22,864 nt of DNA from an uncultured Deinococcales bacterium (GCA_964247135.1 CAXTTL010000055.1:1-22864), one strand, 5' to 3'. Counted from the first letter of the stretch, positions 3,890 to 16,618 are shown. Numbers and translations: made by a program. Notes: generated by a model from the letters alone, not told the origin.

Positions 3890-3933
3890 CCTCTCATCCC
3901 CGACCCTTCTCTCCCAGGAGAGAAGGGAGTTTT
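3890..3933. repeat. palindromic intergenic repeat, CCTCTCATCCCCGACCCTTCTCTCC-N-GGAGAGAAGGG family
   Basis: Hairpin CCCTTCTCTCC-CA-GGAGAGAAGGG; a near-identical reverse-complement copy lies at 14588-14670, interrupted by a 40-nt insert. Confidence 0.85.
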
Positions 3934-3970: not shown

Positions 3971-4023
3971 CCCTCTTTCGCGCAGCGAGAGAGGGTGACG
4001 AGCCTCGGCGAGTCGGGTGAGAG
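3971..4023. repeat. second palindromic element of CCCTCT...AGAGGG type, facing the 3890-3933 element
   Basis: Hairpin CCCTCTTTCGC-GCA-GCGAGAGAGGG, then a second imperfect hairpin GACGAGCCTCGGCGAGTC and GGGTGAGAG. Confidence 0.6.
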
Positions 4024-11290: not shown

Positions 11291-11317
11291 GTAGGGGCTA
11301 GACGCGTCTTGCCCTAC
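11291..11317. repeat. GTAG-type REP-like palindrome
   Basis: GTAGGGGCTAGACGCGTCTTGCCCTAC, an imperfect palindrome with GTAG at both ends. Confidence 0.75.
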
Positions 11318-11391
11318 GCGGAAATTTCATATTTTGTGCGTCATTTTTTGGGTTTGAATTACAGCGTTATCAAACCAATGTATCGGAGTTT

Positions 11392-11488
11392 GTAGGGTGC
11401 GCCCCGCGCACCGACATTCACGTGAACAATGGTGCGCGAGGCGACCATGCCCGCAAGGTGCATTTTATGGTCAAGACGCGCACCCTAC
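11392..11488. repeat. inverted REP doublet (REPIN-like) with a 37-nt insert in the right REP
   Basis: Left REP GTAGGGTGCGCCCCGCGCACC (11392-11412). Right REP GGTGCGCGAG[insert 11441-11477]GCGCACCCTAC is the reverse complement of the left with one mismatch once the insert is removed. Confidence 0.8.
11441..11477 (+). mobile_element. 37-nt structured mini-insert GCG...CAAGAC
   Basis: Interrupts a REP; shares ends, core GCCCG-NN-AGGTGC and fold with the 14614-14653 insert. Confidence 0.6.
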
Positions 11489-11499
11489 CGGAGGATTTC

Positions 11500-12318
11500 A
11501 TGACCTTAAAACTCGAGAAGGCAAACACTGGCATCGAAATCAAAAACCTTTCCAAACACTTTCCTGGCAAGAACGGCGGTTACACCGCGCTCGAGGCGGT
11601 TGATCTCGAGATTGGCGCGGGTGAATTTGTCAGTTTGATCGGGCATTCGGGTTGTGGCAAAAGCACGTTGCTGTCCATGATCGCTGGTCTCGAGAAACCC
11701 AGTACGGGTTTTGTCAAGCTCGAGGGGCAGGAGATCAAAGGTCCTGGTCCAGACCGTGCGGTGGTGTTTCAAAATTATTCGCTCTTGCCGTGGTTGACGG
11801 TTGAATACAACGTGCTCGAGGCGATTGAGGCATCGTGTCCCGAGATGGACAACCTCACGCAGGTCGGACGTTGCGAAGAGTATTTGCGAGCCGTCGGTTT
11901 GTGGCAGCACAGGCACAAACGCCCGCACGAGATTTCGGGCGGCATGAAGCAACGTGTGGCGATTGCCAGGGCGTTTGCGATCAATCCTCGGGTGATGCTG
12001 CTGGACGAGCCGTTTGGGGCGCTGGACGCCCTGACACGCGGTGGTTTGCAGGAGCAACTGAACAAAATGCTCTACGGTGAGTCCAAAGCCGAAACCGTGG
12101 TGATGGTGACGCACGATATCGACGAGGCGATGTATCTGTCTGACCGTATTGTGATTATGAGTAATGGTCCAAAAGCCAGAATTTTTGACGTGATCGACGT
12201 GCCATTTGCCCGTCCTCGCAACCGCACTGAAATGACCAAGACTCTCGAGTATGCCGAGTTGCGCGAGCGTTTGGTCAGGATTTTGACGGTGGATTTGGCG
12301 GTCAAAGAGGCGGCTTGA
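11500..12318 (+). CDS. nrtD: nitrate ABC transporter ATP-binding protein
   Basis: Start moved to ATG 11500 after RBS GGAGGA. Walker A GHSGCGKST, VFQNYSLLPW, ISGGMKQRVAIARA, LLDEPFGALDA; no C-terminal NrtC regulatory domain. Confidence 0.9.
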   Translation: MTLKLEKANTGIEIKNLSKHFPGKNGGYTALEAVDLEIGAGEFVSLIGHSGCGKSTLLSMIAGLEKPSTGFVKLEGQEIKGPGPDRAVVFQNYSLLPWLTVEYNVLEAIEASCPEMDNLTQVGRCEEYLRAVGLWQHRHKRPHEISGGMKQRVAIARAFAINPRVMLLDEPFGALDALTRGGLQEQLNKMLYGESKAETVVMVTHDIDEAMYLSDRIVIMSNGPKARIFDVIDVPFARPRNRTEMTKTLEYAELRERLVRILTVDLAVKEAA

Positions 12319-12320
12319 AT

Positions 12321-12677
12321 TCACTTTAGACTGACTGTGATTGTCGTTGGAGCACTTGAATCACTGCCAATGTATGCGCGAACAGTCACAAACCCAGTTG
12401 CCAATCCTGTGACGATTCCATTTGTGACAGTTGCAATATGTTGATCCTGTGAAATCCAAGTGGTAATCATGCTCATTGAATAGCTTGGCGTTAATGTCAC
12501 ACTTTCACCAACTTTGATTTTGACCTCTTGTGGCATCAGAAAAAAAGGCGGTGGCAAACGAACTCCAGGGCTTAAACAAGACGAACTTAGCAGCACAAAC
12601 CCTAGACATAACCAAAGCAAGTACAACTGTTTAGGAAGTACACCCAAAACGTGGTTTTGAAATTTTTTGGATAACAT
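12321..12677 (-). CDS. small lipoprotein with a bacterial Ig-like (Big_2-like) domain
   Basis: ATG 12677 preceded by GAGAAGGTGG; hydrophobic stretch ending LLSSSC; KVGESVTLT...TW.S.D..IATV.NG.VTG.A.G...V pattern. Confidence 0.6.
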   Translation of the reverse strand: MLSKKFQNHVLGVLPKQLYLLWLCLGFVLLSSSCLSPGVRLPPPFFLMPQEVKIKVGESVTLTPSYSMSMITTWISQDQHIATVTNGIVTGLATGFVTVRAYIGSDSSAPTTITVSLK

Positions 12678-12967
12678 GATCCACCTTCTCAAAATGATTT
12701 TTGAGTTTTCGGTCTAAGGCAAAAAATGAAGCCGTGTTTCGTATTAGACTCTTGCTTTTAAAGCCTGTCAAGCACTGCTCAAATTAAAAAGTCAATAAGA
12801 ACAACACGTCATATTCAACAAATTCTATTCTTTCTTTGGTCGCTCGAGTGTTCCTTCGCTCGAGTGCATTTTTATTGTGCTGCTCGAGATAAACGATGTT
12901 AGGTTTCTCATTCCCCTGGGCTTGTATTCCAGCAAACGAAACTTTGTAGACAAATACGTTTAAGATA

Positions 12968-12980
12968 GACAAAAGTTGTC
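12968..12980. promoter_or_regulatory. candidate operator upstream of the cys operon
   Basis: Palindrome GACAA-AAG-TTGTC within an AT-rich region; TAGACAAA is directly repeated at 12947 and 12966. Confidence 0.3.
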
Positions 12981-13016
12981 AGTTTATAAATCTTGTAAAC
13001 TACATTTAAGGACGCC

Positions 13017-13076
13017 ATGCCCGAGCAACACCACAACACACGAATGTCCACAGTCACACGCTGTTGGGCTTGTTGA
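13017..13076 (+). CDS. candidate Cys-containing leader peptide MPEQHHNTRMSTVTRCWAC
   Basis: RBS AAGGA at 13008-13012; ATG 13017; two TGT codons in the last four codons; upstream of cysC. Confidence 0.4.
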   Translation: MPEQHHNTRMSTVTRCWAC

Positions 13077-13233
13077 CGCTCGAGGTTTTCAAACCATCAA
13101 CCATCACCCAAAAGGCGCAAGGTTTCACGCCCGTTAAAGGAATTTTGATGCCCAGCAAAAAACACCTACGATGTCGAATGCATCAACCCTTCCCGAACTC
13201 AAACCAGCCACAATTTCTTTAAGGAGCAACAAC

Positions 13234-13770
13234 ATGAGCGGAGCAGTCATTTGGTTTACCGGATTATCAGGCGCAGGCAAAACCACCATCGTCAAAGCAC
13301 TCGAACCAGTGCTGCTCGAGGCGGGGCATAAAGTTCAAATCCTCGACGGTGACGCCGTGCGCGAAACACTTTCCAAAGGCTTGGGATTTTCCAGGGAAGA
13401 CCGCGACACCAACATTCGCCGCATTGGATTTGTGGCAAACCTGCTCGCCAAGCACGGCGTGGTGACCCTGGTCAGCGCCATCAGCCCCTACCGCGACACG
13501 CGCCGCGAAGTGCTGGCGGAAGCCGATAAAAGCTTGGAGGTGTTTGTGGATGCCCCACTCGAGACGGTCAGCAGCCGCGATGTGAAGGGCTTGTACAAAA
13601 AAGCCCTCGCAGGCGAAATTCAACATTTCACAGGCGTCAGCGACCCTTACGAAGCCCCAGAAAACCCCGAACTTCACCTTCGCACCGACCTTGAAAGCCT
13701 CGAGCAAAGCGTAGACCGTGTACTCGAGAAACTCGACAGCCTCGGAATTCGAGTCCCAGTCAAAGCATGA
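13234..13770 (+). CDS. cysC: adenylyl-sulfate kinase
   Basis: Start moved to ATG 13234 after [53 protein letters not shown]. Confidence 0.96.
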
Positions 13771-14426
13771 ACACCGTTCTCGAGCCACCTTCAACCAGCC
13801 AAGACCCGCTCGGGTTTATTGGCTGGGCGCTCACGGCTTACCCCGATGTGGTCATGCCGAGCGCGTTTAACCTCAACGGCATCGTGCTGATTGATTTTGC
13901 TGCTCGAGCAGGTTACACGGGAAAAGTGCTTTTTGTCGACACCGATTATCACTTCCGCGAGACGCTGCAAACCCGAGATGTCCTGAAAGCCAAATACCCG
14001 CAACTCGAGTTTGTCACGCTGAATGCAGGCTTACTGCTCGACGATTTGTACTTGACCGACACTGACGCCTGCTGCGCCGCACGCAAAGTTGCGCCACTGC
14101 AAAATTACCTTGCCGAGCACAACCCAACTGCCGTCCTGAACGCCCGCAGCCGTGACCAAGCCAGCACCCGCAGTGAGATTCCCCTGATCGAACACGGCGC
14201 TCGAGTCAAACTCAACCCGCTCGCCAACTGGACAAGGCAAGACCTCGAGGCTTACGCCAGAGAACACGACCTGCCCATCAACCCACTGTACTTCGATGGT
14301 TTTTTAAGCATCGGTTGCGCTCCCTGCACCCGCGCCGTGCGCCCAGGCGAGGACGCTCGAGCGGGACGTTGGGCAGGACAAGGCAAGACCGAATGTGGAC
14401 TTTGGGTTGGGCAAAACGCGATTTGA
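13767..14426 (+). CDS. cysH: (phospho)adenylyl-sulfate reductase, Fe-S type
   Basis: [45 protein letters not shown]. Confidence 0.93.
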
Positions 14427-14512
14427 CGGCATTGATTTAAAATGCAGACACAGCAACAGCAGGGCAACAAAGCAATGACGCGGCAAGAATCAACAACGCA
14501 ACGTCAAAGGCA

Positions 14513-14536
14513 GGGCGCAGCAAGCAGCGCCCCTAC
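14513..14536 (-). repeat. GTAG-type REP-like palindrome
   Basis: Minus strand reads GTAGGGGCGCTGCTTGCTGCGCCC: GTAG followed by an imperfect GC-rich hairpin. Confidence 0.75.
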
Positions 14537-14587
14537 AACAAAACAAAAATCAAAAGACGAACAATGCCACCACACCACATATCAATT

Positions 14588-14670
14588 AAACTCCCTTCTC
14601 TCCTAGGAGAGAAGCGCACCAAGCCCGTCAGGTGCTGCCGTAAGGTGCAAGACGGGTCGGGGATGAGAGG
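14588..14670. repeat. inverted copy of the 3890-3933 repeat carrying a 40-nt insert
   Basis: AAACTCCCTTCTCTCCTAGGAGAGAA[insert]GGGTCGGGGATGAGAGG matches the reverse complement of 3890-3932 with one mismatch outside the insert. Confidence 0.85.
14614..14653 (+). mobile_element. 40-nt structured mini-insert GCG...CAAGAC
   Basis: Absent from the empty copy at 3890-3933; homologous in ends and fold to 11441-11477. Confidence 0.65.
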
Positions 14671-14708
14671 GCAGCGCAACCAGCCTACCCCCGCCACAAA
14701 GGAAACCC

Positions 14709-15878
14709 ATGACCTTGACCTTAGAAACCACAATCCTCGAGAACAGCCTCATCACCCCACTCGGCGGCAAACTGATCAACCGTGTCGAAAACCTTGACCC
14801 GAAAGATTTTGCGCACCTCCCAACCCTCGAGTTGACCGACCGCAATTACGCCGACCTCGAGTTGATCGCCACGGGCGTGTATTCGCCGCTCACAGGTTTT
14901 GTGGGTTCCAAAGACCATGCCAGCATCGTCGAGAATTTACGCCTTGCAAACGGTTTGCCGTGGAGCATTCCGATTACTTTGGGCGTCTCGAGCGAAGCCG
15001 CAAAAACTTTAACGGGTCAAATCCTGCTCAACTACCGCAACGCACCCGTTGGTTTGCTCGAGGTGTCTGAACAGTACACGCCCGACAAGCAAGAAGAGGC
15101 GCTCAAAGTTTACCGCACCACCGACGAAAAGCATCCTGGCGTGGCAGCCTTGCTCGAGCAGGGCGAAGTCAATTTGGCGGGAGACATCACGTTGTTCGAG
15201 GTGTCTCGCGGCGATTATCCCGAGCACCATTACACCCCGCTCGAGACCCGAGAGCAGTTCGCCAAAAAAGGTTGGAAGACCGTGGTGGCATTCCAAACCC
15301 GCAACCCAATTCACCGTGCGCACGAGTATTTGCACAAGGTCGCGCTCGAGACGATTGATGGACTGTTTTTGAATCCGCTGGTTGGCAGCACCAAATCCGA
15401 TGATGTTCCTGCGGCAACTCGAGTGAAAGCCTACGAGGTGCTGCTCGAGGGTTACTACCCAGCAAACCGCGTGTTGTTCGGCGTGTATCCCGCCGCGATG
15501 CGTTACGCCGGACCTCGAGAAGCAATTCTTCACGCGATCTCGAGACGCAATTACGGCTGCACCCATTTTATTGTCGGACGCGACCACGCCGGCGTTGGCA
15601 CATATTACGGCACCTACGACGCCCAAGAAATTTTTAACACGTACAGTAAAGAAGAACTCGGCATTGAAATCATCAAATTCGAGCACACGTTCTACTGCCG
15701 CACCTGCGGTTCGCTCGTCTCGAGCCGCACCTGCCCGCACGACAGCAGCCATCATTTGGTTTTGTCTGGCACGAAAGTCCGCGAGAAACTGACTGCTGGC
15801 GAAGAACTCCCAACCGAATTCACCCGCAAAGAAGTCGCTGAAGTCTTGCGTGCCGCATATCTCGAGGCGAAATCATGA
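14709..15878 (+). CDS. sat: sulfate adenylyltransferase (ATP sulfurylase, Sat type)
   Basis: [53 protein letters not shown], zinc site CRTC...CPH, LSGTKVR. Confidence 0.97.
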
Positions 15879-16618
15879 TTGAGCCGCCCGTACTGGTTGC
15901 CCTGGGAGTGGTCACGGGGTTTTTGATCGGCACGACCGGACTTGGTGGCGGCAGTTTGCTGACCCCTGCCTTGTTGCTGCTTGGGTTGCCAACCCCAGTT
16001 TTGATTGGCACGGACTTGCTGACCGCCAGCATCACCAAAATTGGCGCGTCGTGGCGGCATCATCTCAGCGGCACGATTGATTGGAAAACCGTTGGCTTGC
16101 TGGCGTTGGGCAGCCTTCCCGCAGGTTATGCCACCAGCCTGATGCACCTGAAAGTGGATTTTTTGCTGCGTTTGTTGGCAATTGCTTTGATCTTTACAGG
16201 TGTCGCCATTTTGTGGCGTTGGAAATACCCGCCCAAAGTTGTGAAAGCCATTCCCATTCCATTGCCCCTGATTGGCGCATTGGTCGGCGCACTGGTCGGC
16301 TTAACCAGCATCGGTAGCGGCGCCATGCTCGCGCTGGCACTGACTTTTATCATGCCGCACCTCAAAGTCTCGAGGCTGGCGGGTACAGATGTTGCCCACG
16401 GTGTACTGCTTTCGTTGGTCGCTGCCGCCGGACACGCGCAACGTGCCGCCGTGGACTTCCCTACCGTCGGTTGGTTGCTGCTCGGCGCACTGCCCAGCAC
16501 TTGGCTTGCCAGCGGCTATGCGCCCAAACTCTCCGAGAACATTGCCCGTCCACTTCTTGGTACAGTGCTGTCAATTGTTGGAACAGTGCTGATTCTCAGG
16601 TCGGTGCTGAGCGTCTAG
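15875..16618 (+). CDS. sulfite exporter TauE/SafE family membrane protein
   Basis: Duplicated motifs G.TG.GGG.L.TP and [12 protein letters not shown] twice; highly hydrophobic; overlaps the sat stop. Confidence 0.88.

Follow-up and report, generated by a model that had tools for sequence, protein, structure and literature searches.

Very small dispersed repeats that fold and nest have been described before, in cyanobacteria: the small dispersed repeats (SDRs) of Nostoc punctiforme, SDR1-8, which Elhai et al. reportedly presented in 2008 (Genome Res 18:1484), are said to be 21-27 nt long, to form a hairpin with compensatory changes and to nest in each other and in other repeats. How such tiny non-coding DNA units move, having neither inverted terminal repeats nor target duplications, has to our knowledge been an open question since then. 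According to an extract of the source, SDR5 inserts precisely between bases 3 and 4 of HIP1 (PMC4390886), and the part of a second source that deals with these repeats reports SDR-like units in no HIP1-rich cyanobacterium outside Nostocaceae (PMC5861425). The window analyzed here is a stretch of 22,864 nt from an uncultured Deinococcales bacterium, one contig (C55) of a 5.09-Mb draft genome (hereafter G000; 386 contigs, 84% complete), and it carries two inserts, at 11441..11477 and 14614..14653, each of which splits a different hairpin repeat. An earlier note, made from this sequence alone, had proposed that they are a non-autonomous, structure-defined mobile element that targets hairpin repeats, and this core inference is supported by the number of copies, by their boundaries and by the interruption of a transposase gene (tnpA). 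In our best reading, to which we give a probability of roughly 0.55, both inserts belong to a family of non-autonomous mobile DNA elements, 36-40 nt long, which is defined more by shape than by sequence and is moved in trans as single-stranded DNA.

The first window copy, 37 nt long, lies on the plus strand and belongs to a subfamily that we call "ACCAT" (covariance model R1, 51.2 bits, E = 1.1e-10). It comprises a 5' GC overhang (11441-11442), an outer stem (11443-11448 with 11467-11472), an inner hairpin (11449-11461) with the loop GCAA at 11453-11456 and a bulged T at 11459, a T-rich linker (11462-11466), and the tail AAGAC (11473-11477), a structure that the minimum free energy (MFE) folds give both as DNA and as RNA. 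Its flanks, GGTGCGCGAG (11431-11440) on the left and GCGCACCCTAC (11478-11488) on the right, join into a GTAG-type repetitive extragenic palindrome (REP) in reverse. This REP hairpin (GTAGGGTGCGC-loop-GCGCACC; 11431..11488, minus strand) is split after its loop GAG, immediately 5' of the G that opens the 3' arm, and an intact, empty partner of the same family stands at 11392..11412 on the plus strand. The second copy, 40 nt long, also on the plus strand and of the "CACCAA" subfamily (R1 44.8 bits, E = 3.7e-9), has its inner hairpin at 14623-14635 and its tail CAAGAC at 14648-14653. It is flanked by ...CTCCTAGGAGAGAA and GGGTCGGGGATGAGAGGG and is held at GAGAA^GGGT by a host hairpin that we term repeat A (CCCTTCTCTCC...GGAGAGAAGGG, then TCGGGGATGAGAGGG; 14590..14671, plus strand). 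An empty copy of repeat A at 3890..3933 (minus strand) is, once reverse complemented, identical to the flanks of copy 2 joined directly; over 3890-3929 the two halves abut with zero duplicated bases, in agreement with the proposal that insert 2 lacks a target duplication. The placement of the inserts and of their host repeats in the earlier note is exact, and the features it listed as common to both, a GCG start, a CAAGAC end, and GCCCG-NN-AGGTGC within, are all present. Its remark that only two copies are visible holds for the window, where the next match of the covariance model has an E-value of 0.57, but not for the genome.

In G000 as a whole, the 13-base core GCCCGNNAGGTGC occurs 132 times, against once for a reversed-pattern control. 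The model R1, with which the genome and its relatives were scanned as the earlier note had suggested, returns at least 149 copies among the best 150 candidates; its per-genome counts are lower bounds, since the best 55-150 candidates were scored. A pattern for the whole unit, reapplied after excising the copies already found, raises the number to at least 172, namely 149 contiguous copies, 22 recovered after one round of removal and one after two. This count, for which the sequence pattern and at least three of four stem pairs were required, drops about 14 copies of a subfamily with G.A/A.G mismatches. The 172 copies measure 37 nt (78 copies), 36 nt (41), 40 nt (19), 38 nt (17), 39 nt (16), or 35 nt (1) and share one layout: they open with 5'-GC, the 5' arm of an outer stem of 5-7 bp follows, and then come the inner hairpin GCCC-G(N)NA-GG(T)GC with its bulged T, a T-rich linker, the 3' arm of the outer stem, and AAGAN-3', in which the final base is A in 131, C in 27, G in 13, and T in one. 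Four-base inner loops are found in 120 copies and three-base ones in the other 52, the latter reading GAA in 37 cases. Thus, the GNNA tetraloop and bulged T of the earlier note stand for both inserts, while the loop of the family as a whole is better written G(N)NA, a third of the copies having three bases only.

The subfamily left out of the count, GC-GCGAGTA...TACGAGC-AAGAA with its ACA/TGT and ATA/TAT relatives, keeps a tandem G.A/A.G mismatch inside its outer stem, and the three adjoining pairs covary (G000 C6:61346-61461, C268:2254-2291, and other sites). Element copies also break assemblies, the motif being found at 11 of the 772 contig ends of G000.

The MFE folds of the window copies give the outer stem, the inner stem with its bulged T, and the 4-nt loop, with the exception of insert 2 folded as DNA, which adopts another form. 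Because single-copy folding z-scores are weak, ranging from -0.2 to -2.2 (copy 1 as RNA, -2.15), the case for structure rests on covariation and not on energy. Two tests were made. In the first, the 149 contiguous G000 copies were collected by a sequence-only pattern without any stem condition, and the arms were anchored on the fixed ends; 88.5% of the first five outer-stem pairs are standard, against a mean of 59.0% and a maximum of 64.0% in 1000 shuffles of the partners. Of the 19 kinds of 5'-arm tetramers, 12 can pair over their full length with the partner they meet most often, as in ACCA/TGGT, GTTT/CAAA, ATTC/TAAG, ATCC/TAGG, ATGC/TACG, and CACC/GTGG. The second test used a MAFFT alignment, not fitted to the structure, of 67 copies, that is, the two window copies and 65 from metagenome-assembled genomes (MAGs) labelled Deinococcales or Truepera. 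Here, 81.6% of the outer-stem cells are paired versus 74.4% in shuffles, and the covariation score is 0.175 versus 0.087, a value that none of 500 shuffles reached and that slid controls (at most 0.104) also fell short of; five of the six outer-stem pairs are changed on both sides. The inner stem could not vary in this alignment, as the pattern by which the copies were collected fixed it. Furthermore, sequence-only matches outside the lineage lack the stem, none of 17 matches in IMG/VR having four of four pairs. The outer stem therefore differs between subfamilies yet stays complementary, and the compensatory changes that the earlier note had read in the outer stems of two inserts recur in both tests. 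The number of independent events is nearer to the number of stem types than to that of copies because copies within a subfamily are related by descent.

Tabulating filled against empty sites, another suggestion of the earlier note, shows how the copies lie in their hosts. In G000, REP type 1 (GGTGCGC-loop-GCGCACCCTAC) is empty at 109 sites and filled at nine, always directly after three loop bases, and site 1 of repeat A (GAGAA^GGGT) is empty at 101 and singly filled at 24, all in the same orientation and none inverted. The boundaries, whose inconsistency the earlier note had named as a sign against its idea, are constant (GCG...CAAGAN) at paralogous and orthologous empty sites, and no target duplication was found at three kinds of empty site (repeat A, orthologous sites, and a tnpA gene in a related genome, G017). 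In addition, ten G000 copies are identical across all 37 nt while standing in differing contexts, either nested, in REP loops, or in tandem.

Six genomes of the genus, with coding flanks 79-90% identical, were compared at orthologous sites, where presence and absence are polymorphic among congeners. The repeat-A site upstream of the ATP-sulfurylase gene and downstream of the PAPS-reductase gene, which holds copy 2 in the window, is filled in G000, G005, and G003; of the other three genomes, G001 and G004 have it empty and G002 shows a deletion there. The loop of a second GTAG-type REP, 90 nt upstream (GGGCGCAGCAA^GCAGCGCCCCTAC; 14513..14536, plus strand, with its site at 14523/14524), is empty in G000, G003, and G001, and its orthologue in G005 holds one element nested in another. 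As the occupants of this position in the copies of repeat A span about ten outer-stem subfamilies, counted by reading through the copies, the position has been hit independently and repeatedly; the three filled orthologous copies may go back either to a single old insertion followed by compensatory drift or to three separate hits. In G017, an IS200-type tnpA is interrupted by a 38-nt copy. Residues 1-47 and 47-105 of an intact homologue align on either side of it (tblastn), and joining the flanks restores the reading frame, which answers the objection that the inserts might be ancestral parts of their hosts. Altogether, we hold it to be very probable that the element family is mobile.

At this G017 locus (C401:8300-9400, L140), the copy within tnpA stands at AGAA^GGGG, a second copy lies just upstream, and both are antisense to tnpA. 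At G000:C46:947-985, a 39-nt copy is found in frame within a putative open reading frame (ORF) of 251 codons, to which it would add 13 residues. The gene calls in G000 are crude ORF picks, and all genomes are drafts of uncultured organisms; judging from six that were inspected, the 43 copies counted "inside ORFs" were mostly set aside as artefacts of such calls (over-extended starts and read-through of repeats).

The window offers further host sites. The spacer ahead of the ATP-sulfurylase gene holds both copy 2 and the empty REP, within a sulfate-assimilation cluster (13171-16618) of APS kinase, PAPS reductase, ATP sulfurylase, and a TauE-type exporter. A third host repeat (GAGCCTCGGCGA^GTCGGGTG; 4000..4019, plus strand) is empty at its site 4011/4012 and filled on four other G000 contigs (C27, C30, C189, and C256). 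Repeat A, whose consensus is CCCTTCTCYC-loop-GRGAGAAGGG followed by TYGGGGATGAGGG, is itself dispersed, with about 125 or more copies in G000 (101 empty and 24 filled at site 1). At least two families of GTAG-type REPs exist in this genome, with window sites at 11392-11412, 11431-11488, and 14513-14536, and also at 11295-11322; one of them, GGGCGCWGCWWGCWGCGCCC, gives 90 matches, taken as about 45 loci because a palindrome matches both strands.

The contexts of the 172 copies indicate what is targeted. Another copy's loop accounts for 39, abutment to another copy for 25, GTAG-type REPs for 33, site 1 of repeat A for 29, and its site 2 (GGGGATGA^GAGGG) for six, the other 40 lying elsewhere. The base before the insertion (-1) is A in 141 of 172, the base after it (+1) is G in 141, and the base at -2 is A in 104. 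Among the 71 sites outside nests, arrays, and repeat A, 32 (45%) fall in a loop closed by a perfect stem of 5 bp or more, against 5.8% of 5000 random intergenic A^G sites, and the most frequent arrangement has no loop base, or a single one, on the insert's right side. The element goes in without target duplication and in one orientation only, as a rule immediately 5' to the loop-closing G of a hairpin. Nested copies show the same orientation as their hosts in 26 cases and the inverse in none under a strict contiguous-pattern count (39 are nested by flank analysis). Once GCG...CAAGAN is removed, the loops of 32 nested hosts have four bases in 18, three in 11, and five in three, which is close to uninvaded copies. 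Tandem arrays reach four units, and at none of their 11 junctions is there a spacer. Since the element's ends read GC(G) on the left and (A)GAA on the right, the preferred AA^G(C/G) step reappears at either new junction, and such a recreated target would explain the nesting and the zero-spacer arrays.

The level, DNA or RNA, at which the element acts can be approached through its loop. The third base of the 4-base loops is C or T in 83 of 120 copies, which shows that the loop is not of the GNRA type, and G.T pairs occupy only six of 860 outer-stem cells. A search of Rfam 15 gave no match at the gathering score, an E-value threshold returning chance-level hits only. Mini-hairpin DNA, according to extracts of Kimoto and Hirao (2026; PMC13037366), has two forms, C-GNNA-G and C-GNA-G with any N; it melts near 65-76 C, resists nucleases, and is found in single-strand origins; CCGAAAGG and CCGAAGG are named examples, the RNA version r(GCGAAAGC) melts far lower, at 39 C, and such motifs occur in single-strand initiation signals such as ssiA. 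The loop of the element and its closing pair (CC-G(N)NA-GG) match both the 3-base and the 4-base forms, GCGNAGC and GCGNNAGC, although the mini-hairpins of that source are isolated motifs at phage and plasmid origins and the element is a dispersed mobile repeat (PMC13037366, in extract). To judge from its base sequence, the loop fits the DNA mini-hairpin rule rather than that of the GNRA RNA tetraloop. Relative to genes, 45 loci are sense and 28 antisense in co-directional settings, 21 lie in convergent spacers, and nine in divergent ones. The earlier note had allowed for a small functional RNA or single-stranded DNA module; the RNA half of this alternative is weakened by the slight orientation bias, the lack of an Rfam match, and the rarity of G.U-type pairs. 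On balance, the element probably moves at the level of single-stranded DNA, while copies sitting in operons may also act as RNA hairpins. We also considered that the free loop bases might be randomized upon transposition; this idea of a hypermutable loop was rejected because ten dispersed copies and most tandem neighbors share the same loop.

The element is restricted, among the genomes scanned, to one family of uncultured bacteria of the Deinococcus group. Matches to R1 are present in 17 of the 18 other genomes of this family, G015 having none and G011 eight (15 at a looser threshold), and in none of the 102 genomes that represent four other families of the order. Scanning a single genome of each species gave at least 115 loci; among the 80 matches listed, 61 are in MAGs titled Deinococcales, Deinococcota, or Truepera(ceae), and the remaining 19 are singles in unrelated phyla, about the chance level by our estimate. 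The same stem subfamilies recur across many MAGs. No plasmid of PLSDB matches the element, and no earlier description of such an element in Deinococcota was found in the open-access literature searched. Carriage by phages was considered and dropped, the 17 IMG/VR matches cited above, two of which have three of four pairs, being read as chance and phage records yielding only partial chance matches. The contrast within the family, 17 genomes rich, one poor, and one empty, together with the 102 empty genomes outside, makes phyletic profiling for the enzyme feasible. With REPs, operon spacers, and at least one transposase gene among the places they invade, the copies shape how the genomes of a widespread lineage of freshwater and cold habitats, so far known only from MAGs, evolve.

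The complete 5.1-Mb genome of the family member G011 (L162-L173) has 12-15 copies, mostly of one subfamily, at least six of them at AGTA^GGGG in a further host repeat (GAGTCACCCCCTGCGAAGTA^GGGGGTCGTCG...). MAGs labelled Truepera or Trueperaceae (L032, L045, L056, L085, L090-L092) carry a 36-nt variant with an inner stem longer by one G-C pair (GGCCCG-GNA-GGTGCC), a shorter linker, and the CAAGAC tail.

From these properties, we propose that the element is excised or copied out as single-stranded DNA, its outer stem juxtaposing the two ends. Donor and target would both be single-stranded and folded, as may happen at replication forks or in the course of repair, and a nuclease-ligase acting in trans would exchange strands between the element junction and an AA^G step like it in the target. 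Joining would take place in one orientation at an N^G step (82% A^G), on the 3' edge of an extruded hairpin loop and with no duplication of the target, and the target hairpin could be a REP, another repeat, or the loop of another copy. An HUH-type single-strand nuclease/ligase would be the closest mechanistic model for the trans enzyme, although it is rather doubtful that the enzyme is of this type.

Several results weigh against this single-stranded DNA reading. G000 contains four Y1_Tnp matches, three of which have GTAGGG/CCCTAC motifs nearby and are RAYT-like; the core motif lies within 3 kb of none of the four, the one strong IS200 copy has end hairpins of unrelated sequence, and no protein gene is linked to the element in this genome. 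No autonomous parent, with a left and a right half around a gene, was found in G000, the pairs spaced by 2.7-4.6 kb being read as separate whole copies. Genes with a copy on both sides number just two, and by eye neither resembles a transposase or nuclease, no Pfam scan of them having been made. Over the 19 genomes of the family (G000 included), Y1_Tnp is found in 16, being missing from the element-rich G008 (91% complete) and G006 (74%) and having four matches in the element-poor G011; RVT_1 is found in five and IS110 in nine, and Y2_Tnp in none, a result that is void as a test because the same search was positive in none of 14 known control genomes. Neither a single-stranded or circular intermediate nor a recent event was seen, the contigs of public runs giving only pieces from relatives; those of four public runs had no informative joint at the two window sites, the best DNA run matching 0.23 of the sampled words, and no RNA run with the locus was listed. 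The base to the left of the insertion is only loosely fixed: some sites have T there, and the loops of REP type 1 have G. Relative to GC skew, no strand bias is detectable, the skew itself being uninformative with 51% of the coding length on the G-rich strand. Finally, IS200/IS605 elements have separate left- and right-end hairpins, whereas this one has a single conserved inner hairpin and an outer stem that pairs both ends. The search for a TnpA(REP)/RAYT, IS200/IS605 TnpA, or reverse transcriptase gene flanked by the motif, which the earlier note had proposed, thus found none, and its HUH/Y1 partner, unsupported by linkage or distribution, survives as a mechanistic analogy. The absence of an enzyme gene is itself weak evidence, as multi-copy transposase genes often fail to assemble in draft MAGs, and these negatives weaken the HUH model without killing it. 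As a side observation, an IS110-type transposase gene (PF01548, 79.6 bits; G000:C51:14436-14983) starts about 90 nt from a mini-element, an adjacency seen once; IS110 relatives target REP-like hairpins.

Other explanations can account for part of the data. The element could be a structural module selected by the host, with its spread secondary, either as an intercistronic mRNA hairpin that shields the upstream message in the manner of REPs or as a single-strand DNA signal for priming or for exclusion of single-strand-binding protein. We consider this unlikely. Both window copies are indeed inside operons and co-oriented with the genes, copy 1 in the spacer between an ABC permease and its ATPase and copy 2 between PAPS reductase and ATP sulfurylase, and the genome-wide bias toward sense loci and convergent spacers points the same way. 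The recurrence of stem subfamilies in many MAGs and, at the orthologous repeat-A site, the conservation in three congeners of a folded element with paired stem changes (CACCAA/AAGGTG, CCCCAA/AAGGGG, and CCCAA/AAGGG) would also suit a selected function, as would the mini-hairpins of initiation signals such as ssiA (PMC13037366, in extract). However, a hot spot that has received about ten subfamilies may just as well have been hit independently in the three congeners, 28 loci are antisense, and copies pile up in nests and tandems where one hairpin would do. One copy destroys the tnpA frame of G017, Rfam holds no match, and a function leaves the precise, oriented insertion unexplained.

A somewhat less probable explanation dispenses with a dedicated transposase: the folded strand, resistant to nucleases, would persist as an oligonucleotide and be ligated by replication or repair enzymes of the host into loop nicks of extruded hairpins. 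We know of no precedent for such a ligation of hairpin oligonucleotides by host repair. It would account for the lack of a linked or co-distributed enzyme gene among the families screened (Y1, RT, IS110, and Y2), for targets that are hairpin loops, and for junctions that vary by about one base, as in the final position of the tail and in the extra A kept by three of 32 nested hosts; mini-hairpin DNA is moreover described as withstanding nucleases and denaturation (PMC13037366, in extract). Against it, the strict orientation (26 to 0 in nests and 24 to 0 in repeat A) and the constant ends GCG...CAAGAN imply a specific recognition of the element, and its restriction to one family, with 0 of 102 genomes positive elsewhere in the order, is more easily explained by a lineage-specific enzyme.

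We give little credence to a retro-insertion, by which the element would be transcribed, folded as RNA, reverse-transcribed, and integrated. RNAs typically form families that are defined by structure and keep compensating stems, transcribed spacers hold many of the copies, and copy 1 folded as RNA has a z-score of -2.15; but RVT_1 is absent from the element-rich G005, G007, G008, G009, and G013, which are 91-94% complete, the loop violates the GNRA rule, and G.U-type pairs remain below 1%. That the inserts are ancestral and the short forms deletions can be practically dismissed: while a precise loss is indistinguishable from a precise gain at any single repeat site, the same 36-40-nt unit is found in at least five unrelated hosts, in its own loop, and in a tnpA coding sequence with intact collinear homologues, an interruption that already contradicts this view, and empty sites outnumber filled ones (109 to 9 and 101 to 24).

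With the preferred reading of a single-stranded DNA element moved in trans in mind, the family can be set beside known systems. Its closest analogue appears to be the Nostoc SDRs, to which it is likened, and from which it is set apart, through their descriptions and not by comparison of sequences. Both are very small, non-coding, and dispersed, and the SDRs reportedly share the covarying hairpin and the nesting; both also insert precisely at a fixed point of the host, as SDR5 does in HIP1 (PMC4390886, in extract). They differ in length, 35-40 nt for the element and a reported 21-27 nt for SDRs, a range into which it does not fall, and in phylum. The element has a two-tier stem with a DNA mini-hairpin core and zero-spacer tandem arrays, and it targets the 3' edge of hairpin loops where SDR5 targets an octamer.

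The nearest known chemistry would be the "peel and paste" of IS200/IS605, for which Deinococcus is the classic model host; a hairpin of IS608 has a bulged T, like the element. The absence of target duplication, oriented insertion beside a short flank motif, folded single-strand hairpins, and possible precise excision are common to the element and to IS608 and ISDra2 (PMC6006769, in extract). The target of those elements, however, is a fixed 4-5 nt, whereas the flank here is only biased (A at -1 in 141 of 172 and at -2 in 104 of 172, with no duplication), no Y1 gene bearing the ends of the element is found in G000, and the distribution of Y1 does not track it. By analogy, then, the chemistry may be similar, although two features that define membership of that family, distinct hairpins at the two ends and a cognate Y1 transposase, are lacking.

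The element resembles REP/REPIN-RAYT systems in being a short extragenic hairpin repeat of hundreds of copies, non-autonomous and vertically persistent (PMC3116915, PMC3733652, both in extract), and genuine GTAG-type REPs and RAYT-like genes coexist with it in G000. It nevertheless starts with GCG, has neither the GTAG/CGTC head nor the doublet organization, and uses REPs as targets; nor does it adjoin a RAYT, the RAYT-like loci being flanked by GTAGGG/CCCTAC. It differs from miniature inverted-repeat transposable elements (MITEs), which combine terminal inverted repeats with target-site duplication, in that no duplication was seen at the three kinds of site. Its consensus shows no GTT box such as those of the R''/R' boxes (GTTRRRY) of integron attC sites, the integron integrase not having been searched for. 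Helitrons and IS91-type rolling-circle transposons have short termini of fixed sequence and a hairpin lying a few bases in from the 3' end, and they insert without duplication between two particular host bases. As far as these descriptions go, the element shares their termini, hairpin, and duplication-free insertion and is smaller by orders of magnitude. Judged on such sequence features, it is not a member of the REP/REPIN, MITE, or IS200/IS605-derived families.

It is conceivable, if doubtful, that the element and the Nostoc SDRs represent a general, unrecognized class of sub-40-nt "loop-hopping" parasites of single-stranded DNA, each with a nuclease-resistant mini-hairpin, by which it would persist as a folded strand, and two-base target-mimicking overhangs (GC... 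/ ...GAA), spliced by a host enzyme or by an undescribed nuclease-ligase outside the four screened families. If this were true, they would be the smallest self-propagating DNA units known and would move by a transposition chemistry that is new or by replication and repair enzymes put to a novel use. The element stands beside the SDRs as a second, unrelated, and richer system, with fixed ends, one orientation, a target at the loop edge, and a core of known biophysics.

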